Shown: positions 10,205-43,127 of the stretch, piece after piece
Numbering within the stretch: position 1 is the stretch's first letter
Layout of the letters: the number at the start of each line of letters is the position of its first letter
Assembly (NCBI GenBank): GCA_044892525.1
Contig: CM097885.1
Coordinates: 33,482,001-33,546,000, forward strand
DNA length: 64,000 bases
Origin: Schmidtea polychroa
Taxonomy: Eukaryota
Reading direction: 5' to 3'
Translations under genes and position numbers: made by a program
Notes under the pieces: model-generated
What the model was told of the DNA's origin: nothing
What the model saw: only the letters and a program-made list of their open reading frames with translations
Databases searched by the model: none

Positions 10205-12719
10205 CAGTCTTTCTCAAAATGGCCGAAAAAATGGGGGGGGCGTTGACGTGGGTTAAGAGGGCGATGGTAAATTTGTAATTTCATTTACTTTATATTCTAA
10301 ATTTCACTAAAATTAAAACCTACCTACTACACAATTACGAATAACTAGTTTATATTTCTACCATGTATGATGTTATAAAAACTTAAAATACTTATCATAG
10401 ATTTTGTAGGATAGCCCGCACGCCGTACCCAGTCAAGTTATAACAAATTTCTGTTAAATAACGCTATTGGAGCAATCCGGTAGCAATCGGCTGGTTCTTC
10501 GATACTTGTCCTAACTTGCTCAGTACGGTTTGAGCGTCGAAAGAGATAAACGAATTGGTACGTGTTTGTCATATTCCTGTCGGTACTTGCTGTATTTAAA
10601 TCCTATATAAAAGCTCTTAATTTTTCTTATATTTTCATTAGTGGTTTCGCGCACTATCTTTAAACAAGTATTTAAGTTCAACACTTTATTTACATATTTT
10701 TGAAAACAAAGCCATGTCGGAAGCAAAAAAGAAGAAACGTCAATACAGTGCAGAATATATTAAATATGGATTCATAGAAAATTCGATAAACCCATCTTTG
10801 CCCCTGTGTCTTCTTTGTTCAAAAACATTTTCAAACGAAGCGTTGAAGCATTCAAGATCTTTTGAATAAAATGCATCCAGATAGGAAGGACAAAAATGTA
10901 GCCTACTTTCAAGTTCTGGAAGAGAAGCAAAATGTTCAGCCAACTGTATTGAAACTCTTTTCGATGGCTTCTAAGCAAGACGATGACGGACTTCGAGCTT
11001 CATTCAATATCTCTCTGTTAATTGCTCAAACAGGTAAACCACACACCATCGGAGAAAAGTTAACTTTGCCGGCGATAAAAGAACTTATAACTACTGAGCA
11101 CCATAAACCGGCGGCAGATATAATTCGAAAAATTTCTTTGAGCAATAGTTCTGTGCAAAGAAGAATTGATGAAATGGCTGAAAACATTAAAGAGTCATTG
11201 TGCAATCATCTGAAGACTAGTCAATTTTCAATTCAGTTGGATGAGTCCACTTTACCAACTAATAAACATTGTTGTTGTCTTACGTGAGGTTATTAAAGAT
11301 GAAAAAATATGTCAGGAACTTTCATTTGCTAGAAATTTAGAGACAGACACAAAGGAGAAACCGTATTTAAACACTGGAAAGATTTTGTGATGAAAAAGGA
11401 ATTCCCTTGAAAAATATTATATCAGCTTCTACAGATGGTGAGTCAGCTATGACGTGGTGTCAAAAAGGCTTCATATCGTATCTTAAAATCAAAATTCCTA
11501 ATGTGCTTGCTGTACATTGTGTTATACATCGACAACATTTCAATAATTGCAACATGTCATCAGAGCAATCAATAAAATCCGAAACAACAATTTAAATGAC
11601 AGATTATTTAATCATCTTTGTGTCGCTAATGATGAAGATTTCAACAGATTGATCCGAAGTGAACACCGAAGTGCGTTGGCTATCAAAAGGAAATTGTCTA
11701 ACTCGTTTTTACAATCTGTTTGACTCTGTCATAGAGTTCTTAGAAAACAAAGACACAGAATTGTGCGAAAACCTCAGCATTTCAAAGAATGATATCGCAT
11801 ACCTGACAGACCTTTATACAATGCTCAATGATATGAATCTCCAACTTCAAGGCGATGATTTGAACTTAATAAAAACAAAATATGTCGTTGCTGCTTTCGT
11901 AGCCAAGCTGCTCTTACATAAGAAGGATATCGGCAGACGTGAGTTCCGTAATTTTCCCAATTTATCAGTATCCTGCAACAACGACGACTTTCTCGTATAC
12001 TGCCAACATTTAGAAAAATCTTCATTGAAAGATTCCATGACATTTTGAAATTGGAAATACCAAACTGGGTGTTAGATCCTTTTTCAAATGTCAACATTGC
12101 AATATCACCCCAGCTGGAAGAAAAACTTAGAGTTGACAATGAAGGAGTAAATAAAAATCAAATTCGAAAATGGCTACCAACAATTTTGGCTACAAAAGTC
12201 AATTCCGCAGTTGTATCATGGATTGTGGTCGATCATTCAACGATTTTTGATAGCATTCCCATCGTCATATTTGTGCGAACGTGGATTTAGCGCTGTGACA
12301 ACGCTGATTACTAAAAAGAGAAATCATTTGCAAGTTACCAAACGCGGCGACTTCCGACTGTTTTTGAGTAAATTCGAACCTTATATCAACAAATTTGTTA
12401 AAAATCATCAAATTCATCATCTCATTAGATTAGTTTAAAAAATAAAACTTATTACCTATCTGTATTGTTTCTATCACTTTGATTAAAATATATTATTAAT
12501 ATTATAAAGTTGCATTTTAATTGCTCTCACTGATAAAAATTTCTAGTTTAGAATGTAAGTTTAAACACCAGAACCGACTAATATAGCATACTATAACTAA
12601 ATGAACTAAAGTAATGAAATTATGGTTTTTAAGTTTTAGGAGTGTATAAAAAATGGGGGCGCTGAAAAATAATTGATTTTCAAAGGGGGCGGTAAAAGAA
12701 ATAAGTTTGATAATCTATG
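10205..12719 (+). mobile_element. Full-length hAT element, Buster/Charlie subfamily
   Basis: Perfect 8-bp TSD GTCTAAAG (10197-10204 and 12720-12727) with the central TA typical of Buster elements. Imperfect TIRs CAGTCTTTCTCAAA / TTTGATAATCTATG. GGGGGCG subterminal motifs. Confidence 0.92.
10714..12438 (+). pseudogene. Frameshifted Buster-type transposase (ZBED5/ZBED8/SCAND3-like family)
   Basis: Begins MSEAKKKKRQYSAEYIKYGF..PLCLLC. ORF pieces carry KPHTIGE, SLSNSSVQRRI, FSIQLDEST, STDG, HCVIHRQH, EVRWLSKG, IAYLTD, LQLQG and FPSSYLCERGFS, split by several frameshifts. Confidence 0.92.
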
Positions 12720-12937: not shown

Positions 12938-13448
12938 ATGTGGCATAGTTTTAAAATTGGAGAATGCTTTGAAAATCTTAATTTATACGAGAAAAGAAAT
13001 ACTATTGCTTCTATATTTTCTGGTTTGCTTTTTTTCCTAGGATGGTGGTTAGCAATCGGTGCATCAGCAGTTTATCCTAAACAAGAAGAGATGCATCATG
13101 CTATTCATACCTGTGGTGTATTTGGTACGGTTGCATTTTTTATGATAAATATCGTTTCAAATGCTCAGGTTATAATAAATTTTTAGCCGCACTTTATTGA
13201 TTAAATAGCTTAGAGGTGATTCTTTATATGAAGGTGGATGCATTGGACAAACTGGTGCTCGAATCTGGATATTTATTGGATTTCTATTGAGTTTTAGTAG
13301 TTTAATAGCGAGTTTGTATATTTTATTTGGAATATATGTGGTACCGAAAAAGGTACCTGTAAATCCCGGAGTTTTAATTTTTATTCAGAATCTTTTCATA
13401 TTTGTTTCTGCCTACATTTTAAGATTCGGAAGAGTTGATGAAAATTGA
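12938..13448 (+). CDS. TMEM50: Transmembrane protein 50 (UPF0220/Vps68 family), 156 aa; join(12938..13168,13209..13448)
   Basis: Exon 1 has [39 protein letters not shown] 40-nt GT-AG intron follows (13169-13208). Exon 2 reads [25 protein letters not shown]...[21 protein letters not shown]. Matches animal TMEM50A/B along its length. Confidence 0.95.
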
Positions 13449-14383
13449 TTGTCTATATCGCTTGGTATTCTGTAAAGATTATGTATTATCACAAAAATGA
13501 TTTATTAAAATATAATCTGTTGCGTTTTATTTCATTATTTATATAAAATCGATTATCTAGTAAACCAATTACGTCTTAGAATTGATAATTTCAGATATCG
13601 AAACATTCATCAGATAAATTTACGACGGAAGTTTATAAAATCGAATTCAGTCGAATTGATTATTGTAAGAAATGTTCAACATTTTGAACTGGGCCGAATC
13701 AATGTGAACCCCGTTAAGAAAATTTTACGAATTATCATTTAGTTTTTGTTGATAACTTAATTTGTGTCTGTCTTATATATCCATTGTAAATTAAAATTTG
13801 TGTTATTGAATTTTATAGTTTTCTATGGAGTAGATAGTCATCTGATAAAAATTCGTAATAGGACCTTGTATGTTGACATAGAAATGACTGAGGTTATCGA
13901 AATTAACGTATTGTAGACGTCAGTCCTTCGAACGGCCGTCCAGAACCTGAAAAGGAATGGCATGAGGAAGTACCTACTAACGCAGGCGCTCACCTGCCTC
14001 ATGTTTTCCGCCGACATTGCTCAGTTCCAACGTGAACCATCTTCATGGGTGCGTTGTCGTGAAGCAACAGTCATTTAGCGTGTTGTGAGAATCTGATCTT
14101 TACCATCAACTTAACAGTAGAGCCATCGATTTTTCTGTCCAGTTGGATTAGTTTGTTTAAATTCACGAAACTCCATCAATAACAGTTTGATCATTTCGAT
14201 ATTCTGTTTATCGATGTTTTTACATGTTTCAATTTTATGTCAACTTCACGCTATGTTAGCATGCTATTTTTACGTATTTCTATCGCAATTCACTATTCGT
14301 TTTGGGCCAAATATCATATTTTCCCCAACAATATTAAGCCAAATTTATACAATCTGGTGTTGGCGCTCAGGGGTGTGTCATTC

Positions 14384-14954: not shown

Positions 14955-15629
14955 CTAGAAAAAGATGAATTAGCTTACGGATAACCTCATTACAACTTGC
15001 ACTGAGAAAATACATCAATCAAAGGTGTACTTTATGGCCTCTCATGCATTCATGCAACCTTCCAAAGTTGGGTATAAATTAACATCACTGCGCTACAACT
15101 ATCATAATTTTCTATTTGGGTCTTGCTATTGAGTAAGAAAATTTTGTTTGCTTTAAACTATGGTAGATGGCAGAGTTAGAATTCAAACTTAATTAAATAA
15201 ATAACAAAAGTAAACATAGAAGAAAACTCTTGTCACCCGTAAATTTTTGATTCAAGGCAGGATGTAATTAGGTATTGTTCCTCTTCAATGTTTATTCTCG
15301 TAAATTTTTTAAGAATGATTATGATTTCATTTTTAAATTAAATTTTAAATCATTATTCCAAATTTTACAGTTATTAGATTTAATTATTAACCCGAGGTTA
15401 TCGATTGTTTATTATACAAGGCTATTATTTGTTTATTCACGATGGAGTTATTATTTGTTCCTTTACACGAGATTATCATGTGTTTATATTTCTCTCTGAT
15501 CTCAGTCGCTTAAATATGCCTCAGTTTAATTCTCACTTGAATACATTTAGTGTAGATACCCATCATAGTTTACATATAATATTTTTGATGTTCGTAATTT
15601 TGGTTCGATGGTTATCTCGTCCTTAATAT

Positions 15630-15858
15630 TGGTGGGTTACTGATTATCAAATATTTTGCTCTTTAGTGCTGTTACCAGCGTAACCCAAGATACAACATTG
15701 TTTACCGCTTGATACCCGTTGAGCGATCAACGTTGGTACTGTATCAAGAGGGTGAGTGCTCGCAAAAAGTGAGCGCACTACTTGCACTGTAATTGTTGAG
15801 CACTCCTTTGGGTTCACGGACTACCGTTAGAAGGTTTATGTCGGCTTTACATGGTCCC
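15630..15858. ncRNA. Conserved structured motif, copy A (unknown family; RNA or ssDNA fold)
   Basis: Collinear with 17464-17697, with stems retained through compensatory changes. The 41-nt core 15708-15748 differs from copy B only in the GNRA loop. Confidence 0.55.
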
Positions 15859-15958
15859 TGTCGTCGGATAGTGCTCACGAAAACCTGTTAACGTGTCTTG
15901 TATTCTTCCACGGTATCAGCTCACCCCACCATTCGTATAAATCATCATTATTCATGGG

Positions 15959-16057
15959 TCAATCTGTCCTACCTTCCCTGAAGATGAGCCAACTTTTCCG
16001 TCTTCGTTGGATCTCCTTGCGTCTGACATTTAAATGAGATTCGTTACCAAAAGTTGT
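15959..16057 (-). pseudogene. Short fragment resembling the N-terminal part of ORF 18668-19168
   Basis: TFGNESHLNVRRKEIQRRRKSWLIFR versus SIGGKADEAVRLREEAEIARLRSRWIWYK; aligned by eye only. Confidence 0.35.
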
Positions 16058-16197
16058 TCATTGCCCTACTTAATTATGGTTTAAATGCTCATCGCGACAA
16101 GCTACTTAGACCGCCTTATCACACCATTCCACGAAAATTTGCAACTAGTCTAAATTTTATTCTTATATTAATTTAGCCTAAAACTAATATTTCATCG

Positions 16198-16331
16198 GAA
16201 AAATTAAAATTTTATAATAAATTAAAGTAATAAATCTTTAACCCGAATAAATAAATTAAGTTAGTGAAAAATTAAAATTTTATAACAAATTAAAGTAATA
16301 AATCTTTAACTTAAATTAATAAATTAAGTTA
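16198..16331. repeat. Tandem duplication, 68-bp period
   Basis: GAAAAATTAAAATTTTATAA(T/C)AAATTAAAGTAATAAATCTTTAAC... at 16198 and 16266. Confidence 0.85.
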
Positions 16332-17423
16332 TATTATTAAATATTTGTTTTAAATGATGACGTAACAGTCATTTACTTATCACCCCAAAGCGGTGAATTC
16401 AAATTTTTATATTTATTTAGGATTTAAATTTTTTAAATAATTATTTATGAAATTGCCACTGTATGCGACCTCGCTGAGAAAGAAGCACTAGCATCGAACT
16501 TTGTTTTCGAAATGCTTGCTTCTTCCTCAGTTGTGGCAGTCATCAGCGGCACGATCCACATTTCTACTCGTTCAGTTTAGTAATTTATATTGTTACATTT
16601 ATTTTCACTAATTTTTCAGGTACAAGTTAGCAGGAATTGTTCCCTTTTTTAGGTTCTGGTCACTCGCTGTGGCTATTTTAGTAGATTGTGGAGAGGCTTA
16701 TTTTTAAATATTCGAACGGAAAGTTTACAACTGAAATCGATTTTAAACCTGAAATAGAAGCGCTAGTCGGAGCACACGGGTATAAACTACCTAGCAAACT
16801 TTTCAGGAAAAGGTGAATTTCCATTCATTATTGGAATTTTATCGGCTCTCAAAACGAACAATTTGCACAATAAAAGTTCCTATTTTGTTTAGTTATTTTT
16901 TTCTCTTTTTTATTCATTCACTGTTATGCTTTTTTATTCTATTTATAATAATAATAATAACATTGATAGCAGTAATAATAATAATAATGATAATAATAAT
17001 CGTAGTAATAATAATAGCACTAGGGTAATAATAATAACACATGCAAAATTATAAAAATTTTTAGGATTATAAAACGACTAGCAATAACCTTAATTCTTGT
17101 TATTATACAACTTGGGGTCTTTAGGGGGAACGGTGGTTATATTTTTATAAGGTTATTTTATAAATTTATATATACATACACATACACATACATACAGATT
17201 TATATATTTAATTTAAATTATTAATTGTGTCGTCGTTTTCTGGGGGGGGGCAGTTACTAAAAATAGATTTTAGTGGTTTTCTAAAATTTTATTGGAAGAT
17301 AGGGTCATTGAAACTAAATTTAGAGATAGGGGAATCCCAAAATCAATAATTTGGTCTATAATTTTATTTTCATGAAATAAAGATAATTATTTTAATAATA
17401 TAATAAAAATAATAATAATGATA

Positions 17424-17463
<40 letters not shown>

Positions 17464-17465
<2 letters not shown>

Positions 17466-17697
17466 GTGGGTTACAGGTATTTTCAAAGTTTCTACCTACT
17501 CCTGCTGTTTCCAGCGTAACCCAGGATACAATTTATAACTGACCACTTGATACCCGTTGAGTAATCAACGTTGGTACTGTATCAAGGGTTTGGGTACTAG
17601 CAAAAACTGAGCATGCTTAGCATACTATAATTGTCTAGCACCCACTGGGGTTCACGGACTGCCGATAGAAGGCCTATGTCCGGTTTCTTTAGTCCCC
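17464..17697. ncRNA. Conserved structured motif, copy B
   Basis: Second copy of 15630-15858. Core CTTGATACCCGTTGA-GTAA-TCAACGTTGGTACTGTATCAAG at 17546-17586. Confidence 0.55.
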
Positions 17698-17840
17698 GTT
17701 ATGATAATCAACATTATAGAAAAATCACAATGTCCAGATATGAGTGTACCAGTAAAGATTTATTCATAACAACAAGATCGGAACTCATAGGGTTGTAGTC
17801 GGTTCTTTCGGTGCAGACTCTGACAAAGTAGCATGGAGGG

Positions 17841-18393
17841 TCAATTGGGCCTGACAGGCTTGGCGGACTCTGCCCGCGCCGCTTTACCCGACCGGATCTT
17901 CTTCTTCGAGATCTTCAACGCATATTCCTTCGGTTGGTGAAACAGTTCACTCATAGGTCGGATCTTGGAAATGACCTCTCGATCAAGGTCCTGTTGGTGT
18001 ACCTTGACCTCCAGCTCTCTCACTCTCAGGCGGAGGGCCCACAACTCAACTTGATCTTGGGCACTCTGGAGTTGCAATTGGGTGATGAGTTTCATCCGCT
18101 TTTTCATCTCTGCTGGCGGAAACCAGGTGCTCTCGAAATTCCGGCAATGGACCTTGATTCGCACTAACTTGGCCCGGTATTCTTCCACCTGTTGTTGCGC
18201 CCGCTCTCTATCTGTTCGCATTTCTTCCAGGAGTTTTAGCACTAAAACAAGATAACGTTAGTGAGATTCATATCAGCATCGAGTGTCGAGCATTATTATG
18301 ATCATCAATACTAAATGAATGCAATCTCTTCGTCGCAGCCCTCCTCTACGCGCACCAAAACCGAGTTCTATGAATCTTACCAAACCCTATCGG
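17841..18393 (-). CDS. Orphan coiled-coil protein, TWF family member B (13-nt micro-exon 18381-18393 plus terminal exon 17841-18241)
   Basis: Open 133-codon frame with FESTWFPPAEMK, heptad-like segments and a basic tail. Acceptor ctaacgttatcttgttttag has a CTAAC branch site. The upstream ag|CCGATAGGGTTTG|gtaag micro-exon joins in frame. Confidence 0.65.
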
Positions 18394-18667
18394 CTGTCAA
18401 TGTTACAGAAAATTGTAGTCGATAATAATAATAGTTAACGCTAAGAACTTTACCAAGAATCAAGCAATACACACAATTAAATTAATATCGACAACCAAAA
18501 CCCAATCAAACATTTAACTAAATACAAACTACTAAGACATAACGAATATTATTTTAATTCTGGGTCAAAGTTATCTAACCCAGTACACAATGTCTCAAGG
18601 TACATTAATAGCGGAGTCATTACAGGATGATTATTTTTATCACAAGACTCTAGTCATGACACAAATG

Positions 18668-19168
18668 TTAGGGGTGTTGTGCAGCGCTGGCTTTCAGTTC
18701 AGTAATCTTCTTGGCGGAGCTGGAGGTTTTTCGTGGGCGTCCGCGTTTTCTCTGCTGGCTCGGCTCACGTTGAGGCTTCCTTGGGTATTCCAGCCCACGG
18801 CGAAGGGCTGCGGTCCGCTTAGTATGGCATTGAGCTCGAGCGTAACCGTCAATATCCTCGAGCTCGCCGGCCAAGGTTGCTGTTTCGAGCCTGTGCAGTC
18901 GGTCCACCGCTCTCTTCGCATCGTCGAAGGCGTCGCTCAGAGCCAATGAAGTAAGATTGATATATGGCTCCACCTTCGGGATCACCGGGACCACATTCTG
19001 GTAGGTCCAATCATGAATCTTATACCAGATCCATCTAGACCTTAGCCTGGCGATTTCTGCTTCCTCCCTCAGTCGGACGGCTTCGTCTGCCTTCCCGCCG
19101 ATACTGTCGGGGCTCCAGTCATTTGACGAGTGACCTTCTTGTACTTTCCTTGGCTCAGTGTTGGGCAT
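18668..19168 (-). CDS. Orphan 166-aa protein with a C-terminal AT-hook (RKRGRPRK)
   Basis: Intact ATG-to-stop ORF, much more GC-rich than the host background. The ATG lies 2 nt after an acceptor-like ttttatcattacag. RKRGRPRK is a canonical AT-hook core. Confidence 0.65.
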   Translation of the reverse strand: MPNTEPRKVQEGHSSNDWSPDSIGGKADEAVRLREEAEIARLRSRWIWYKIHDWTYQNVVPVIPKVEPYINLTSLALSDAFDDAKRAVDRLHRLETATLAGELEDIDGYARAQCHTKRTAALRRGLEYPRKPQREPSQQRKRGRPRKTSSSAKKITELKASAAQHP

Positions 19169-19503
19169 GGCTGTAATGATAAAAGAGAGGTTAAAACGAA
19201 TCCTCGTTCTCCCATTTACGTTCGGTTACTCTAAGACGTTCAATGTACAGTTACATTTAAGATCACCGCGACCCGCATCTCAACGATATCTTAGGTAGGG
19301 AAAATGGACCTAAAATGCTAATTAATTTCCCCTTTCGATTTATTCTTTAATTTAATTTAAGTTGGCTTGAGACTTACGAAATCCAAGTTTATAAGTCTCG
19401 GTTACAGAATTGCAGTTCGTATGTTTAAAGTGGAAATCCATGAGCTTAGTTTTGATGAACTACTGGTTGATACAGTAGAAGTGAGCGTTTAAAATTTTAT
19501 GAA

Positions 19504-19638
19504 TTAAACTTTTAATAGTAGTTGTTTAACTCATGCAAAGATTTAATTTAACTATTTATACCAATCTATATTAATTCAAATTTTAAACTATTAATAGTGG
19601 TTGTTTAAATCATTCAAAGATTTAATTTAACTATTTAT
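19504..19638. repeat. Tandem duplication, 79-bp period
   Basis: TTAAACT(T/A)TTAATAGT(A/G)GTTGTTTAA..CAT.CAAAGATTTAATTTAACTATTTAT at 19504 and 19583. Confidence 0.85.
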
Positions 19639-20625
19639 TCAAATATTATTTTTCATTTTTTAGAATTCTCCATTGATAATTTTTTTGGCAAAGTTTATGC
19701 TACTAGGACCCACTATGGGAAGCGGATGTTGCAAATTGTATGAATTTGTATTCAACTCTTTGTGAATCCCTGACCATAGTGGTTGTAAGTGGCCCTTTCA
19801 TCAGCTGGTGCTCGATAGTAAGTTAAAATTTTTATCTTTTGTAGTTGCATAATTTCAGGAATGGGTCTCTAATTCCTCGGTTTTTAGTATTTCAATCATT
19901 CACCGTATTGGAGTTATTACTGTTTAGTGGAATCCAAAGTATGGCTATACTCCCAATTCGTGGGCATTTAGGTGAAAATTTCGGGGATTTCAGGATTTTA
20001 CTGATCTGTGCCACAGGAATTTAAAGTGAAAATTGGGACTTGAGTTTTTCTGAGTAGTCCCCTTCTAGACATTCCTTAATATTACCGGTAAGATTCTTTT
20101 CGTAAACAAAATTTTTGATTTTATTAAATACATTTTCGCTTTTGTTGATTCTTATTTAAGTAATTTTGTTTGACGTAAATTAATAATTATCGAGTAATTT
20201 TGTTAACTCCTCATGAGAACCTATATAGTTAGTAATCATGACTTGTTATTATTCCTTACCTTTGGTCCTACTGGGTGGGTATTCCGATTCAGACCGTTAC
20301 TTTCGGGGACTAGGTCCCGTGGCTTACATGCGATCTACTTCTGGGGTAACAAGGGTTAAATTCGCATGGGTGAGATAGGTTTTATCGAAAGATTAGAGTT
20401 TCTACTGACATGGTCGATGGCGATTGGCTCGTGTAGTGGAGAGTATGTGCCACCTATTCGGTCAGTTAGGAGTAGTTCGTAGGGGGTACCCCTTGGTTTG
20501 CAGGGTTGTTACTAATAATAGAAGCGGTATTATTGGTCCAACTTTGTTATGAGGGAAAGGAAAAATCGATACTGTCGGTTTTGAACTTTCCTATTAATAG
20601 TAACGTTTTATTGATAATCATGTTA

Positions 20626-20626
20626 C

Positions 20627-20686
<60 letters not shown>

Positions 20687-20960
20687 TAAAATAATAACAA
20701 TAATAATAAAATAATAGTATTAGTAATAGTAATAATAATGGTAATGATAATAATAATGATAATAACAATAATACTAATAATAACAGTACTATTAATAATA
20801 ACCATAATGATAATTATGGTAATAGTAATGGTAATAATAATGATAATGCTAATGATAATAATAATAATAATGATAATAATAGTAATAATAGTAGTGATAT
20901 GATAATAACCATAATAATAATTATAGCAATGGTAATGGTAACAATAATAATAATGCTAAT
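20626..20960. repeat. (AAT)n / degenerate (RRT)n microsatellite
   Basis: Pure AAT run followed by AAT/AGT/GAT/GGT variants. It explains the poly-I/poly-L ORFs at 20506-21059. Shorter tracts at 16946-17035 and 17395-17463. Confidence 0.95.
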
Positions 20961-23379
20961 GATGTTACTAGGAATGATAGTAGGAGTTGTTGTCTTAGAA
21001 TAATTCAATTGACGACTATATGATTCGAAGGGGTAGTTATAGAAGATTTTTACAATCAAAATATATACATATCATTATCATAATTATGGGAAAAAATACG
21101 GTTGAGTTTTAAAAATTTATAAGTATTTATATAATATATACTACAGTAAACACAAAATCTTTACGGAATTGATTAAGGGTTATCCTATAATTAGGCAAAT
21201 AGACATGAACCAAAAATCATATTTTATTTTATAGTATCTATATAACTAGTATATGTATGACAAAAACTTTGAACTAATTTAGGCATTTAAGGGCATTCAT
21301 ATGGCCCCAAAATGAGGACTCTGTTTTAATTCCAAACAGTTATATAACCGATGCTTACTAGGTAAGGCAATAAACATAAAAATACTTTGAAATAACTAAA
21401 GTGATGATTTATAATTATTCGAATAGATATGAAGTAAGGATTATATTTTAATTTTTAAAGTATTTACCTAGCCAGTATATAGTATGTATGACGATGAACA
21501 GGAGAACTTTCATGGAATGATCTGAGAGTCATTATATAATAATTAGTCACATTCATATAAATGTTAATAGATAAATTCTTATAACACGATTCTAGAGGGT
21601 GGGGTTTAATAATAAATCTCTATTAACCAAACAATAGGGCTACCGGGTATATGTTTAGCGAACGTCCTTGGGTAGGGCAGATTCTAATATATACATTTCT
21701 AAAATAGTCAGGTGATGTTGATACTAGTAAGTATATGTAGAAAATCTTTTATCTAGTACCAAGTTAATAATTAGTATAGGCATATATCTCCCTGAAATAC
21801 ATTCTAATGATATCGGTTTGGAATATAATGTCCACATTAACCTAAAATTATATGAAGCACAAGTTTGGCTCGCATGGGTTTAAAATCGTTATCCAAGAAT
21901 AATTACACCATCGCATTTAAATTAGATTCGGGCTTTTTGATTATAAACTTTCGGATTTAAATATGATTACCAGTAATCTCGATAAGAGTAAATTAATAAT
22001 ATTTGATATCAAAAATATTAAACATTTGAATAGTTTGTGTAATTAGCCGACTATTTGAGAACTTTCGTGATCATTTAAGTCTGGGATATTTCCCGTTTAG
22101 ATTTTCTTAATGATGTATTCCTATAGAATAGTTGAGTGTGTATTTTAGATATGTCGTTTACCGGAAGGTCGAATTAATTAAAATTTTCCTACTTTCCCGA
22201 CTCAACTGAATACGGTACGATAGGCCTTATTGTATTATGTTTCCCGCGATTACTAGCCCAAATTTTATTTCGTCCGCATAGTCCCTGCGACTATGCCAAC
22301 TACCTGAATGGATTTACCGCCCTACTCCTGGTTAGAAACCATTTGTTCGTGGCGACCTTCCGGTTAAAAAAAAATGAAATTTTGTGCATGTAGGGTCGTA
22401 GACCCGATTGTGTGCGTGTGGACTATCAGTTGGAAACAAGGCTGATCAGCGTCGCGAATACAACCCGTCGACGACGCTGGTCATTCTTGTTACGTAATAG
22501 TAAAATGATGATAAAAAGGACAAAATTAATAATTAATATAATTTAGCATAAAATAACAATTATATAATCGATAAAAATCAATCACCCTTACTTTCAATAC
22601 TTGGTGTTTCAGAAAAAATTTTTGGCATACAAAAATATCTAAATTGTGACGAAAATGCGTCGGTATATATACCTGTTTTGTACACGTGTATGTATTGATG
22701 CATTAAAACAAACTCGAATTCTTTTTATTCCAGAATTTTCTATTTTGTAATTTTGATATTTTTAATGGCAATTTTTGTGCCATAATTTTTGTTTTTATTT
22801 TTAAATTTTTATTCTTTAATTATTTTTTGTTAATTTTACGTCCATGATGGATTTGGAACGGTTCCAGAAAATTCCATATTACTTTTAATTTAATTTTTAT
22901 TTTAACTGATGTTCTCTGAATTTCTTTTTAAGATTTTTTTATTTTTATTACTAATTTATTTACTTTTTCTAAATTTTATTGTTTAAGGTAGCTTTTATGA
23001 TGGTCATCGCCATTTTTATGGAATGTTCTGGGTTTTTCTGGAATTTTTTACTGTTTTTACCGTCTTTTAAGTTATTCGAGTTTGTTTTTTGTGACTCTAT
23101 GTTTATTTGGTTATTTTTGAGTTCGATGTTGCATAACTTCTTGCTTTTGGTATAATTTTATTTAATTTCTGTGTTTATGCTTTTGTTGTTTTCCCCTTTG
23201 ATTAATATTGTTTATTTGGTGTATTTTTTTAATATTTAACTACACTTTTTGCATGTTGTGTACCTACGCATTTCAGCCACAATTAGAAGTTTGGGTCTAG
23301 AAATCAGTTCTAGCCCAACAATAATAATAATAACGATAATAATAATAATAAATGTAAATTTAGATGCTTATAAGATTAC

Positions 23380-24535
23380 CACATATGGGGGAGGGGTCAT
23401 TTACGAAAATTTATGAATTTATATTTTTAAGTGAAATATAATTTAACTGTCTATGAATATGATATAATTCAGTATACCTACGTAATAGTTAATGGCTACA
23501 TGATTTGAGGGGGGTCGGTTAAATAAAAAATACCAGTTATATTTTTAAAGGTAATATAAGTTGAATATATCTGAAAACAAATTAAATTAATACTTTTGGG
23601 TAATCATTAATGACTATATGATCTGAGGGGGGTCATTTATGGAAATATACAATTTATAGTTTTAAATATAATATAAGTTAAATATATATTAAGATAAGCT
23701 AATTTAGTATATTTAGGTGGTGGTTGATGACTATATGGTTTATGGGGGGGGTCTTTAATGAAAAATTTTCAACTATGATTTTAAAAGTAATATAAGTTAA
23801 GTATATATATAAAATAGTCTAAGTTAATGCTTTAAGGGAGTGGTTATATGATTTAAGAGAAAGTTATTTATGGAAAAATTATAAATTATAGTTTTATAAA
23901 TTTGGTATCTGTACATATATATGTTAATTTATATTGTTTTCGACTATTCGGTAACTTAGGGGGTAGTTAGGGAAAGTTTAATAATTTATAATTTTATGGA
24001 TTTATTTTCAATTTATAAGTAAGTTAAATCAGCACTCTTGACATAAATTTGAGCTACCATACTACTTGAGGGAGGCATCTGTGAAAGAAGGTAAATCATA
24101 CTTTTATAAGTTCTAATATGCTTATATATGCTTTATATTATTAACATTAGCCCCTTTTGATTATGATATAACTTAGGGGGGGGTAGTAATGAAAGATTAC
24201 AAATAATACTTTATAAGTTCAAAATGTGCAATTATAGTTTGGAATATTTCTTTGAACATGTGTTTTGGCTATTATACAACCTGAGAGGGTATTTAGGGAA
24301 AATTTTATAAATTATAATTTTATGAGTTTATTATACATGTATGTATTTTAGATTAATATTTTTAACATTGATTTTGACTATTATACAATTTGAGGGAAAA
24401 AAAATAAAAATTTTCTTAGAAAATTATAATACATACTTAAGAGAATCTAGTATATATATATATATATATATATATAACTTATATTAATAATCCTAAGGTT
24501 TTTCTTATGGCTACACCTCTTAGGGGTGGGACAGT
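23380..24535. repeat. Diverged tandem array of ~11 units, mostly ~105-120 bp, each anchored by a G-run
   Basis: Anchors TGAGGGGGGTC-like at ~23386, 23506, 23623, 23740, 23852, 23956, 24066, 24173, 24282, 24390 and 24520, followed by similar AT-rich blocks (...TAATATAAGTT...). Confidence 0.85.
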
Positions 24536-25124
24536 TGTACTTGAAAGTCTATATTTTCCTTGGTTTTGATTTATGCTTTATGTTGAAATAATATTTATGC
24601 TTGCAAGTTATCCATGTAGCCTTGTTTTGGTTATGATTGAGAACAATTTTAACGTAGATCTATTTTGTGGATCCCTATATCATATCTAGAGAAATTTATG
24701 CCTGTAAAATATCATTTCAACAACTTTTGAGTCGAATGAAAAGCACTTTTAGTGGAGAATTGTTTTTGTTATGAATCTATATATTGTAATTACATAACAT
24801 TTGTGTCGACAATTTACTTTTTATAGCTATTCAACTTAGTGTAGAATAATGTGAAGATGTTGCCCGAACTTATAAGTTATAGATATAATATTAGTAGTTT
24901 ATAGATAAAGAGACTTTGTAAATATGTCTACGGGAGTTTGCACATACCAAGACCATTACGATAGAGAAATTTAGTTTGCATCAAAATAGGTTATTTTGTG
25001 GGCATCTATAGATATTAGTTCGCTTACCAGTGCGATTGAGATTATGTCATCTTAGGTCCTACTCATCGCATGAACTTTAGGTTGCAGTATTCTTACAGGG
25101 AATAGTTCAGAATTTTTGAGTCTT

Positions 25125-25503
25125 TAATGATGGATTTTTATGAATTGTTCTGGATTTTTATTCGAAATATCGATATAATTTTCTTTTCGTAAGATTTTAT
25201 GGAGATTTTCTTTAATTTTCTTTTTGAATTTTTTCTAATCGCCTTTATTCGAATTTGTTTTTTGTTGTTTTATGTCTTTCGGTTATATTTGAGTAGGTTT
25301 TCGTGTAATACTTCTTGCTCGTGTTTTATTTTATTTTTAATTCAGATGTTTTATTTTTGGGTATATCATCTCTATTATTATTGTTTACTTGGTGTTTTAT
25401 ATATTTTTATTTAAGTAAACTTAATACTGGGTATGCGTGTTGTGTACTGACACATTTCGTCCCATTCCTAACTTTGGGTTCAGAAATCAGTTCTAGCCCA
25501 ACA
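25125..25503 (-). mobile_element. Second, diverged copy of the LTR-like terminus (homologous to ~22990-23320)
   Basis: AGAAATCAGTTCTAGCCCAACAATA is identical at 23299-23323 and 25482-25506. Collinear similarity extends ~350 bp to the left. Confidence 0.7.
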
Positions 25504-25505
25504 AT

Positions 25506-25960
25506 ATGATGCATAAGATGGCTGATTCATGGTTACTATCGTTAAAAGTGATGGATGTAAATTCAACCGACCAGACGTGGATTTTGATAATCAATCGAAG
25601 ATTATGTGATAAAATCGAGGACAAAAAGCTGGAATATATAAATCCGATGACGATGGAACAGGATGGAAGCGTTACATCTTTTACAGTAAGTCAAACCCAG
25701 AGGCGTGTCTGGATATTAGCAGTTCTTATGACGGTATTTATTTTTGGCTGACGGCCACCCACTAAATTGTAGCACCAATATTGCTTATGACATGCATTTA
25801 GTGGTCAATTAAATAATTATGCCCGATTACGAAGGGAAAGGTGTAGAATCAAAAGTATTTACAGGACAATTCGAGTACATGCATTAAAAGCACTGAAAAA
25901 ATGTAAAAATAATGGAAATGAAAGGAGCATAAGGGCTAGGAAATTATTTTGGACTGGATC
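25506..25960 (+). pseudogene. Mutator-like transposase remnant
   Basis: Frameshifted pieces LDISSSYDG..WLT.(G)H, DMHLVVN*IIM, SKVF and ALKALKK occur in the order of the DIxVSYDGTWxxRGH...VVDYxIMSK...DGDSK...ALRxL pattern of Mutator-like transposases. Confidence 0.4.
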
Positions 25961-35513: not shown

Positions 35514-36134
35514 GTGAATCGATATTATTTACGTAGCAAGAATAAAAAGAAAGCTATGATTAGTGAAGATTTGCCAGTTTCAGTTGTTAAAGAAAATAAT
35601 GATTTTGCAAGTTGTCAAAGATTGCCAGTAGAGCAATATGGAGGAGATCCAGTTATTTTTGTTGATTTTAAGAGCGATTACTATATGTATGCAACGGCTT
35701 ATGGATGGTCTCAAGCAATCATGATTCAAAGATTACTCTTATATCTTAAAGGAACAGCTAGAGAGGTTTGGCAACAAATCGTCAGGAAAACAATCGGCAA
35801 TGATTGGGCCAAGTTGAAAAATGCATTGGCTGCTAAACTTATTGGAGGAGATATTAAAAGATTAATGCGCCAAAAATTGTATAATAGAGTTCAAAATCAA
35901 AATGAAACAGTGAGCGAATTTGCGTATCATTTATCGACTCTTGCCAGCAAATCCTTTGAAGAAGATGCAAAACAACCAGGATTAGCTCAACAGATACAGG
36001 AGCTGATTCAAGACCAATTTTTGTCAGGAGTAAATAAAGAGATCAAGATGGCATTATGTTGTGTAGACTATGACAATTTTGATGAACTAGTTAAAAAGGC
36101 GATGAAAGTTGAATTGAATCTAAAGAGCTGTTAA
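35514..36134 (+). CDS. gag: Ty3/Gypsy Gag, capsid region only
   Basis: 206-codon open frame (first ATG 35556) with LKGTAREVW, W..LK.AL, NRVQ..NETVSEFA..L..LA and DQFL.G retrotransposon-gag motifs. No zinc knuckle or pol follows. Confidence 0.85.
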   Translation: MNRYYLRSKNKKKAMISEDLPVSVVKENNDFASCQRLPVEQYGGDPVIFVDFKSDYYMYATAYGWSQAIMIQRLLLYLKGTAREVWQQIVRKTIGNDWAKLKNALAAKLIGGDIKRLMRQKLYNRVQNQNETVSEFAYHLSTLASKSFEEDAKQPGLAQQIQELIQDQFLSGVNKEIKMALCCVDYDNFDELVKKAMKVELNLKSC

Positions 36135-41215: not shown

Positions 41216-43127
41216 TTAATGGGATTTTTGTTGCTGAATATTTCTCGATAATGCATCAATATCCGGATCATAGTTTGACAATTTTAATGAAATACAAGCC
41301 TCCCACATTCATCGGTAAGTCTGTTTCGTACATCAGATTTTATATTATTCATAATCGAAAATAGACTTTCACAGCTATACGTTGATGAAAATATTGTTAG
41401 AATAGCTAAAGACAATTTCTTCATCGCATTAAATGTTTCTGGGAGCGAACACCATGTCTTCAACAACATATTATTCATGTTTTCGTATTCTTCTTCATTT
41501 AATCTTTTTTTTTCATTATTTTCTATTTCTTGCCTTAACTCTATAAATTTCAGCTTCCAAATAGAACTTGATTGAAACTCTGCCAACTGCATTTCTAAAT
41601 TCTCCAACTGTAACCAGTCTAATTGATCAATTTTAGCAGTTTCCATATCAAACTTGTCTGGATATTTAATAAAGTTAATTAATGGTTGAAATTTTTTGAA
41701 AGCTTGAAATCTATTAGCAAAATTGTCTTGTATGTCACTTATAACTTGGCTATAAAAATTTATATTAATTTCATAGACTCCATGAATAGAAAATTTTTGA
41801 AGGTGATCTTTCAACAAAGGAAAATACTTAAAATTATTGTTGTCAATATCGCGTTTAAATATTACTAATTTGGACTCAAAACCTTCAATAATATCGAACA
41901 TTACATCAATTGATTTTCCGGGACCTTGCAATTTAATATTTAATTCATTTAAATGGTTGGAAATATCCGTTAAAAACATTAATTTGGTGATCCAGTTATT
42001 ATCAAAAAGTTCAGGAAATTCGGTTTTTTATCATTAAGAAACATGATAATTTCATCAAAACATTCTACAAAACGTTATAACACAAATCCTCTACTAAGCC
42101 AGCGTACGTGATTATACATTAACAATCCATGATAATTTGAACCTACCTCTTGTAGAAGCAACTGAAATTGCCGCTTATTCAAAGCTCGAGCTGCTATAAA
42201 ATTTATTATTTTGAAAACAATACTTAAAATATCATCAAATGCTGCCAATCCAGACTTCGCACATAGAACTTCTTGATGAATTATACAATGAAAATTAATA
42301 ATTGGATGCCCAACGTGTTCTTGAAAAAGAGATACAAAACCAGCTTGCCGTCCTATCATTGAGGGAGCTCCATCAGTTGTAATTGACACTATTGTTGATG
42401 TATCTATCTCAGCTATTTGAAACGTTTTTATAACTGCATCACTAATATCTTTCCCAGTTGTTTTTGCTGATAAGGAAACTAGTGAAAGCAATTCCTCAAC
42501 TATTTTTTCTCCTTTAGCATAACGAGCAATTATGGACAAGCGAGCTGAAGATGTTACGTCGGTACTTTCATCAAGACATATAGAAAATAGCTTTGCTGAA
42601 CGTATATCATTTATTTTTTTAATATTAATATTTTTATGCATTTTTAATATCCTGTCTTTAACAGTATTTCGACTTATACTTAATTCTACAAAGCGCTTAA
42701 GTATCTGCTCTTTATTTTGAAAATCTTCAAATAAATGTGGTGCACATTTAATGAAAGCTTCTTTAATATAATCTCCATCGCTAAATGGTTTGCTATGAGT
42801 AGCAATAGTCTTGGAAACCTCAAAACTAGCAGCAACTAAATAATTTGTATGTTTCAAAAATGTAGTGAATGAGTTTGATTGGAAATTTTTATTTTTAACT
42901 TCACGTGCAATATATTCTTTTTGTTCTGAATCACTTTTAGATAAAAGAAATGAATGAGTAGTTTCATAATGACGTTTTACTGAGGATGTTCTGCACACTA
43001 CTGTATTTCCACACAACGCACACAGGGCATTGTTATTGCTTTTCATCATTTCATATTTATCAGTCCACCAATCTTGAAATGGTCTGTTAGAGCTGGCCTC
43101 TGTTTTCCTTTTCTTATTTTCTGACAT
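41216..43127 (-). pseudogene. hAT transposase (GTF2IRD2/EPM2AIP1/SPIN-like) with one stop and two 1-nt frameshifts
   Basis: BED finger (CALC...RHYETTH), KPFSDG, FSICLDESTD, TTDGAPSM, HCIIHQE, VRWLSRG, FLTDI..HLNELN.KLQG and FSSTYSCESLFS. TAA at 42075-42077; shifts at ~42025 (A-run) and ~41302 (G-run). The repaired frame ends IQQQKSH* at 41216. Confidence 0.95.

Follow-up and report, generated by a model that had tools for sequence, protein, structure and literature searches.

What is the fold-back motif of about 230 nt that occurs in a 64,000-nt stretch of the Schmidtea polychroa genome (GenBank assembly GCA_044892525.1, contig CM097885.1, positions 33,482,001 to 33,546,000; hereafter the window)? 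The original prediction described two copies, A and B, as an undescribed cis-acting structure under selection. A ribozyme, a 3'-end processing element, a packaging signal or a single-stranded DNA (ssDNA) recombination site between gene cassettes was offered as its role. We found that the two copies are the terminal ~230 nt of two nested solo long terminal repeats (LTRs) of Burro-type giant gypsy retrotransposons. Judged by sequence comparison, the structure is real and under selection, as had been proposed. We consider, with a probability of about 0.7, that the motif is a U5 leader fold lying before a tRNA-Pro primer site, which likely places the primer and marks the full-length RNA for reverse transcription and packaging. 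The copies and the LTRs that they terminate are as follows.

15630..15858, minus strand: copy A, the terminal ~230 nt of solo LTR-A, putative U5, with the fold P1-P4
17464..17698, minus strand: copy B, the terminal ~235 nt of solo LTR-B, putative U5, with P1-P4 as in copy A
15630..25503, minus strand: solo LTR-A, TG...CA, with LTR-B inside it and the target duplication ATAT at 15626-15629 and 25504-25507
17464..23320, minus strand: solo LTR-B, TG...CA, 5,857 bp, sitting in an AAT microsatellite of LTR-A, with the target duplication ATAA
13910-14066, plus strand: a third, decayed copy of P1-P3, belonging to a distant LTR group (covariance model, 50.6 bits)

LTR-A and LTR-B are both oriented along the minus strand, and the 4-bp target duplication of LTR-B falls within the microsatellite. 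The third copy, overlooked by BLAST and in the original prediction, was found by the covariance model; its probable LTR end is CCAACA at 14330. A weak model match at 25662-25811 of the plus strand (23.7 bits, E ~0.0015) has a P3-like bulge and is perhaps a very old copy. The motif is not a two-copy feature: searches of the 781-Mb, AT-rich eukaryotic genome for look-alikes of the two copies gave 2,445 and 3,188 first-look candidates (40 scored each), and the 21-nt core has 2,412 exact matches genome-wide.

Much of the first description of the two copies held. The five helices are where they had been placed, for example TGGGTTAC at 15633-15640 with GTAACCCA at 15680-15687, and 17467-17474 with 17516-17523 in copy B. 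The two tetraloops are present in the sequence, the core is identical at 39 of 41 nt between the copies, and the listed compensatory changes are there. The plus-strand open reading frame (ORF) said to precede copy A runs from stop to stop over 80 codons, ends at 15626 and belongs to the flanking DNA, not to the LTR. A minus-strand frame had been said to end by both copies; it was found for copy B (17841-18257), and no minus-strand frame of at least 40 codons ends upstream of copy A in 15600-16500. The ssDNA recombination site between gene cassettes is not supported, as the feature is the end of a eukaryotic LTR.

Intact relatives of the window LTRs span 20-36 kb. Full elements have LTRs of 4.3-5.2 kb that are 99.7-99.95% identical within an element, TG...CA ends and 4-bp target duplications. 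Two motif carriers measured 34.2 kb and 35.8 kb, and relatives of copy A occur as direct pairs ~15.5 kb apart. In the single 35.8-kb element, Pfam indicated Gag-CCHC, MATH, fusion glycoprotein, protease (PR), reverse transcriptase (RT), RNase H (RH), integrase (IN), ankyrin and BIR+RING domains; this Burro-group element thus has the gypsy order PR-RT-RH-IN, with an env-like fusion domain between gag and pol. The same domain order is given for planarian Burro elements in the accessible part of PMC6431247. LTR-B type repeats flank Burro-type polyprotein genes elsewhere in the genome. Family A, with LTRs of the LTR-A type, is 20-21 kb long and has gag and a C-terminal piece, without pol and without the env fusion domain; by its sequence it is an internally deleted derivative. 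An env-like tail considered for this family was rejected, as the region matches the polyprotein downstream of integrase. The distant LTR group, which was found via a search for the same primer site and has 2,504 matches to its P1 pattern, likewise has env between gag and pol, with a polyprotein 69% identical to that of the Burro group. A polypurine tract was not found, the 30 nt upstream of the 3' LTRs being not purine-rich in the elements inspected. At four loci (L061, L064, L194 and L202), the 3' LTR is preceded, at a distance of ~10 nt, by a GC-rich word with complementarity to the primer-binding site, and the internal ends could pair.

Some LTR ends are mosaics (L126, L130, L132, L148 and L223): their breakpoints lie between structural domains, and near-identical ends stand on unrelated upstream sequence. 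This arrangement suggests frequent template switching between co-packaged families.

Downstream of the motif, full elements have a long spacer of 7-8 nt and then an 18-nt primer-binding site. Exact junctions of LTR end, spacer and primer site numbered 389, and the control gave 0. The primer site was complementary to the 3' end of this genome's tRNA-Pro(TGG) at 18 of 18 positions in 14 of 15 copies and at 17 of 18 in the other. The tRNA-Pro(TGG) genes themselves lie in a tandem array with a 475-bp period (L188-L193, C1 ~130.9 Mb), and their T-arm pattern has 2,164 matches genome-wide. A family at loci L254-L282 has the same CCAACA LTR end and a 7-nt spacer followed by a different primer site, which we take to be tRNA-Trp-like; the motif could not be traced in it. 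The primer-binding site is absent after copy A and after copy B, and the solo copies of the window are therefore unable to do the proposed job themselves.

The fold consists of four domains, given here from the 5' end of the element's sense strand.

15818..15845 in copy A and ~17656-17683 in copy B, minus strand: P1, a 3-bp covarying stem with a 7-nt UUCUA(A/U)C loop and a lower helix beneath
15754..15805 in copy A and 17592-17643 in copy B, minus strand: P2, a long hairpin with a 1x3 internal loop of C-loop pattern
15704..15752 in copy A (bulge 15733-15740) and ~17542-17590 in copy B (bulge 17571-17578), minus strand: P3, a covarying helix with an 8x1 loop and an apical hairpin
15630..15695 in copy A and 17464-17531 in copy B, minus strand: P4, the terminal helix, with a GNAA tetraloop arm

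Loops were compared over 40 model-aligned copies, those of P2 being counted by alignment column and those of P3 by hand. The P1 loop has one of two exact 7-nt forms in 33 of the 40, with U and A invariant and position 4 mostly U; a G variant is found in the third window copy and at locus L284. A T-loop has five nucleotides, is closed by U...A and usually has a purine at position 4, and we infer that the P1 loop is T-loop-like. In the 1x3 loop of P2, the long strand reads CAC in 36/40 copies and a free pyrimidine is kept in 39/40; one closing pair is A-U in 39/40, and the other is A-U, G-C or G-U in 21, 18 and 1 copies, respectively. In these sequence-level features the loop fits the definition of a C-loop, namely an asymmetric loop within a hairpin, the long strand of which begins with C, enclosed by two closing pairs (accessible parts of PMC9516175; see also PMC2952876). 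The 8x1 loop of P3 ends in CCAA opposite a single G. CCAA is present in 39 of the 40 copies, the training set of which was picked with a pattern favouring it; in sets picked without it and examined by eye, it occurs at 29 of 30 loci (picked by P1 alone) and in 20 of 22. On the sense strand, the P3 apical loop is GNRA in 11/19 copies of the distant group, and the P4 loop is GNRA in 22/22.

The P4 sequences differ between the Burro group and the distant group. In the predicted folds of all 11 copies folded, the last helix of P4 reaches over the LTR end to pair with the spacer, leaving 1-3 nt between itself and the primer site, and the extension up to the primer site also appeared in the consensus fold of 15 copies. 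This pairing is possible only in RNA of the 5' LTR and is therefore the strongest pointer to reverse transcription. A switch between two alternative pairings, which had been suggested for the motif, found no backing: some members of the distant group lack the partner, and the pairing is without covariation.

Several comparisons suggest that the fold has been selected. Minus-strand folding gave z scores against shuffles of -2.47 for copy A and -3.87 for copy B, whereas the signal of the plus strand was weak or none (-0.58 and -1.89, respectively). Across 10 families, the local-match fraction was 0.72-0.94 in the motif versus 0.05-0.70 in the 250 nt upstream, and the motif is kept in families without pol or LTR ORFs. 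Among 22 Burro-group ends, 12 of 48 pairs have double changes and 96.5% of cells pair; against 300 tree-simulated alignments, the top 3 of 26,368 column pairs were predicted pairs, as were 8 of the top 40. P1-P3 are kept in the distant group with rewritten stems. In an alignment of 25 sequences, the mean covariation of 33 pairs was 8.09, compared with a maximum of 2.2 in 400 tree simulations. When the covariance model was extended to the 40 copies, both sides had changed in 25 of the 33 pairs; the lower helix of P3 was paired in 99.1% of cells, with 7 of its 8 pairs doubly changed. The outer P1 helix was paired in 67.5% of cells in this alignment, in our reading because its register differs between groups. 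A shared reading frame does not explain the conservation, as the frame across the motif is open in 1 of 16 copies on the sense strand and in 0 of 16 on the opposite strand.

The wobble pairs indicate the strand. G·U outnumbers A·C by 33:2 in 16 young copies, 58:12 in all 22 Burro-group ends and 120:40 in the 40 model-aligned copies; because of this excess, the fold belongs to the sense strand of the element, i.e. the minus strand of the window. The GNRA structure had been proposed for both strands, and the wobble pairs favour one; what stands of the proposal is a single loop, which 16 of 21 Burro-group copies have as GNRA on the opposite strand.

The position of the motif within the LTR was then read from the signals around it, which in LTR-B are as follows.

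22587..22671, minus strand: predicted promoter, with a TATA box at 22664-22671, an initiator-like word at 22646-22655 and a GTAAG donor at 22587-22591
18668..19168, minus strand: ORF1, 166 amino acids, with an AT-hook-like RKRGRPRK (Pfam E 0.0065, below cut-off)
17841..18221, minus strand: ORF2, 126 amino acids from ATG, coiled-coil-like with a basic tail and with protein-level relatives in LTRs of other families
17759..17764, minus strand: AATAAA, a likely poly(A) signal, 301 nt before the LTR-B end and upstream of the motif

Eight LTRs compared have ~700 nt in common at the start and ~230 nt at the end, and between subgroups little else can be aligned. The first conserved block ends in the TATA box (~+650 to +720), the initiator-like word and the GTAAG donor; TATA and donor are present in 8/8. 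A polypyrimidine-CAG acceptor lies at 19171-19190 of LTR-B, and acceptor and both ORFs occur in autonomous and B-type LTRs and in 0/3 A-type LTRs. With these predicted signals, a solo LTR could be a complete spliced gene. The proteins of ORF1 and ORF2 (17841-19168; also L197, L199 and L213) are conserved while the DNA barely aligns between subgroups, and a protein search with ORF2 returned 26 candidates, one of them an unnamed relative. LTR families have a second conserved block in common, 3' of the donor (22060-22500, minus strand; +820 to +1260 of LTR-B); by eye it forms long hairpins, and it is a possible response element for the LTR-encoded basic proteins.

When 144 LTR ends were clustered into 18 upstream groups, AATAAA was found at -420 to -260 in 11 of the 18, a window chosen after the comparison of the eight LTRs; shuffles gave 2.2 (0/2000 reached 11) and a control window 1/18. 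All 18 groups had been picked by motif words; in each, the motif starts between -219 and -236. It begins 60-190 nt downstream of the likely poly(A) signal. We infer a very long R region, with the motif as U5. Loose ends with A-runs in run X7 coincide with an A-rich part of the genomic sequence close to the start of the LTR, and we discounted them as probably due to internal priming. The role of a 3'-end processing element, one of those first offered, is unsupported as the main role, because the motif comes after the likely poly(A) signal and its last helix draws on bases beyond the LTR.

The explanation that we favour is a leader structure of the full-length RNA. Transcription would start ~680 nt into the LTR and polyadenylation would occur ~280 nt before its end, and RNA would contain the motif only if transcription of the 5' LTR continued into the primer site. 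It is well placed as a packaging mark because U5 would be found only in such read-through RNA, and a packaging signal, one of the roles first offered, is plausible. In retroviruses and Tf1, U5-IR stems present the primer site; P4 may act in the same manner, leaving the primer site open. P1 and P2 would pack via the T-loop-like loop and the C-loop, and the resulting unit may be bound by Gag, reverse transcriptase or the primer. The CCAA bulge may pair with UUGG of the primer-site start, of the tRNA-Pro(UGG) anticodon loop, or of both: it is complementary to UUGG at the spacer/primer-site junction and at bases 33-36 of tRNA-Pro(UGG), and lies 108-168 nt upstream of the primer site. The chance of such a match was estimated as ~1 in 80 for the exact register and ~1 in 7 for any tRNA loop, and four bases are weak evidence. 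Elements without pol keep the motif, as expected of a cis signal, for which the accessible part of a Ty review gives Ty1 as a precedent (PMC4974528).

A number of observations weigh against this explanation. Individual pairs rarely reach E<0.05: 1 of 48 in the tree-aware test of the Burro group, 0 of 33 in the 25-sequence alignment and 2 of 33 in the 40-copy alignment. The structure was derived from these same alignments, the 40-copy alignment being fitted to the model, and the families are mosaics, for which a single tree is no model. Within the Burro group P4 shows hardly any covariation, and a leader role does not explain why the P3 apical loop of that group is GNRA on the opposite strand. 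Every carrier with a primer site uses tRNA-Pro, leaving CCAA no primer change to covary with, and pairing to the tRNA T arm like that of a primer activation signal (PAS) exceeded shuffles in just 1 of 15 copies. As for the poly(A) signal, its window was selected post hoc among groups that are related, and the hexamer is missing from it in 7 of the 18.

A more specific form of the leader explanation is that U5 is a folded tRNA clamp resembling a T-box riboswitch, in which CCAA would guard the primer-site start and then read the UGG anticodon, while the T-loop/C-loop unit would grip the tRNA body. We offer it tentatively, as rather unlikely in this full form. If it were true, the element would select one isoacceptor and switch its RNA from translation to reverse transcription.

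Unlikely as well is that the motif serves poly(A) read-through or nuclear export, with an LTR-encoded basic protein binding it and thereby separating a short LTR mRNA from the full-length RNA, for which the RxRE of human T-lymphotropic virus (HTLV) and the RRE of human immunodeficiency virus (HIV) are models. The start of the fold 60-190 nt past the likely poly(A) signal would suit this role, and so would the LTR's donor, acceptor and two basic ORFs, which make it resemble a full transcription unit. In viroids, according to the accessible part of PMC9516175, a C-loop serves protein binding and nuclear traffic. However, P4 pairs with the spacer beside the primer site in both groups, the second conserved block nearer the promoter is an alternative response element, and the ORFs are missing from the A-type LTRs, although helpers could supply the proteins.

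That P1-P3 form a new self-cleaving ribozyme appears very unlikely. With a cut in each LTR, the 4-5 kb R region would be trimmed and the template might become circular, as it is in retrozymes, which reportedly carry hammerheads in retrotransposons. The near-invariant unpaired bases within freely covarying stems would suit such an activity, and in the accessible accounts of twister-sister (PMC7373991; bioRxiv 10.1101/2020.11.26.399451) a two-way junction with an A-G/C-U helix end followed by C-A, as at the P2 junction, goes together with a 7-nt hairpin of T-loop type. In those accounts, however, the junction encloses the T-loop hairpin, past the catalytic loop, whereas here that hairpin is outside and upstream and P2 ends as a simple hairpin; topology and loop sequence both differ, and Rfam gave no match to this family. 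The first description had judged by eye that hammerhead, hairpin, twister, pistol and hepatitis delta virus (HDV) cores do not fit, and descriptors and Rfam are in line with this. At the motif, Rfam gave no family at E<=5 when 12 kb of the window were searched, and none at 10 further loci. With core patterns (for HDV, the nested double pseudoknot, L3 consensus and J4/2 cytosine), the strict HDV descriptor matched 0 of 34 strand-copies and the relaxed one 7 of 34, on both strands; hammerhead words occurred in 5/34, and hairpin, twister, pistol and hatchet cores in 0/34. Moreover, a ribozyme is superfluous in elements whose LTR pairs have normal TG...CA ends and which possess a tRNA primer site.

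Still less probable is that the structure acts in ssDNA (minus-strand strong-stop DNA) or in antisense RNA, with a part in strand transfer or integrase loading. In its favour, integrase acts at LTR ends, the opposite-strand GNRA loop of P3 in 16/21 Burro-group copies would be accounted for, and there is a weak antisense splice joint in LTR-A (one run, guessed RNA). Against these points stand the sense-strand excess of G·U over A·C in all three sets, the sense-strand GNRA loops of P4 (22/22) and of P3 in the distant group (11/19), and the C-loops and T-loops, which are RNA motifs. The last alternative, that no structure is selected and that the end is conserved by recent descent and by exchange of LTR ends between families, draws on the mosaic families and the thousands of near-identical copies, but is largely refuted by stems rewritten between groups with polyproteins 69% identical, by the paired and doubly changed P3 lower helix and by the mean covariation over 33 pairs.

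Two other roles were rejected. A tRNA-mimic 3' end (7-bp stem and ACCA) does not keep a T-arm equivalent, and the distant group ends otherwise; an internal ribosome entry site is not suggested by a gag start ~3.7 kb downstream in the element checked.

Other features of the window were observed around the LTRs. Tandem repeats of 118 bp, which other LTR families have too, lie at 23391-23813 in mid LTR-A. In run X1 (guessed RNA), two low-depth contigs joined over GT..AG at 16570-16620 of the plus strand, antisense to LTR-A; a deep contig of 1,354 nt matched only 16702-16858. This may reflect a captured piece of a host gene or an antisense transcript. The region 10640-12440 has broken frames that look DNA transposase-like by eye, without a Pfam match. 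A small spliced host gene for a membrane protein, with two frames and a short intron between them, is located at 12938-13448 of the plus strand. Farther away are a fragment of retrotransposon gag (35514-36134) and a hAT-type transposase with a zinc finger and a dimerisation region (41284-43127).

Among structured leaders, those of a few retroviruses and of yeast Ty1 have been characterized in detail. The fold described here appears new, and its general role is of a known kind. The literature, searched by title and abstract opening, gave no description of it, nor did a look-up with the sequence find anything, and the accessible part of the Ty review calls the RNA structure of Ty3 uncharacterized (PMC4974528). 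Metagenome contigs had 0 matches to the 21-nt pattern, and one match to a gapped pattern was rejected as chance, lying within a bacterial coding region with no fold; in viral contigs, a short pattern matched 3 times, with no likeness beyond it, and the gapped pattern 0 times. What emerges is a multi-domain U5 fold, backed by covariation, in an animal gypsy clade that has thousands of copies; the fold bears on primer choice and on how full-length RNA may be told from the mRNA that any solo LTR could make. The covariance model, in addition, detects diverged LTR ends that BLAST overlooks.

How does this system compare with known ones? It resembles planarian Burro/GYPSM1 elements, as far as these are described in the accessible parts of PMC6431247 (and, for the BIR protein B-IAP of Burro1, via PMC13465017), in a length of >30 kb, LTRs of ~5 kb, env between gag and pol, and the Gag-CCHC, MATH, PR-RT-RH-IN, ankyrin and BIR+RING domains. 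That literature, in the same parts, deals with proteins and not with LTR RNA structure, and the likeness to the named Burro1-4 rests on size and domains. Burro1 is reported to support planarian stem cells (via PMC13465017), and PMC8532177, in its accessible part, deals with expression only.

The Ty1 5' leader has a pseudoknot, CYC and extended primer boxes in the same review (PMC4974528). Like the present fold, it is a compact cis-acting structure near the primer site that non-autonomous elements require; unlike it, Ty1 is copia-type with its primer site within GAG, and sequence and fold differ. For HIV-1, the accessible parts of PMC13191261 and PMC11251516 describe contact of an A-rich loop with the anticodon and a PAS. 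The likeness lies in an unpaired U5 run, here CCAA, complementary to bases 33-36 of the primer tRNA, whereas CCAA stands far upstream of the primer site in an 8x1 loop, and PAS-like pairing is not above chance. The U5-IR of retroviruses and Tf1 likewise places a helix at the end of the LTR, stopping just short of the primer site. In the present elements, in a structure that belongs to no Rfam family, this helix is one of four domains extending over 220-280 nt, with a spacer of 7-8 nt and conserved loops of tertiary type.

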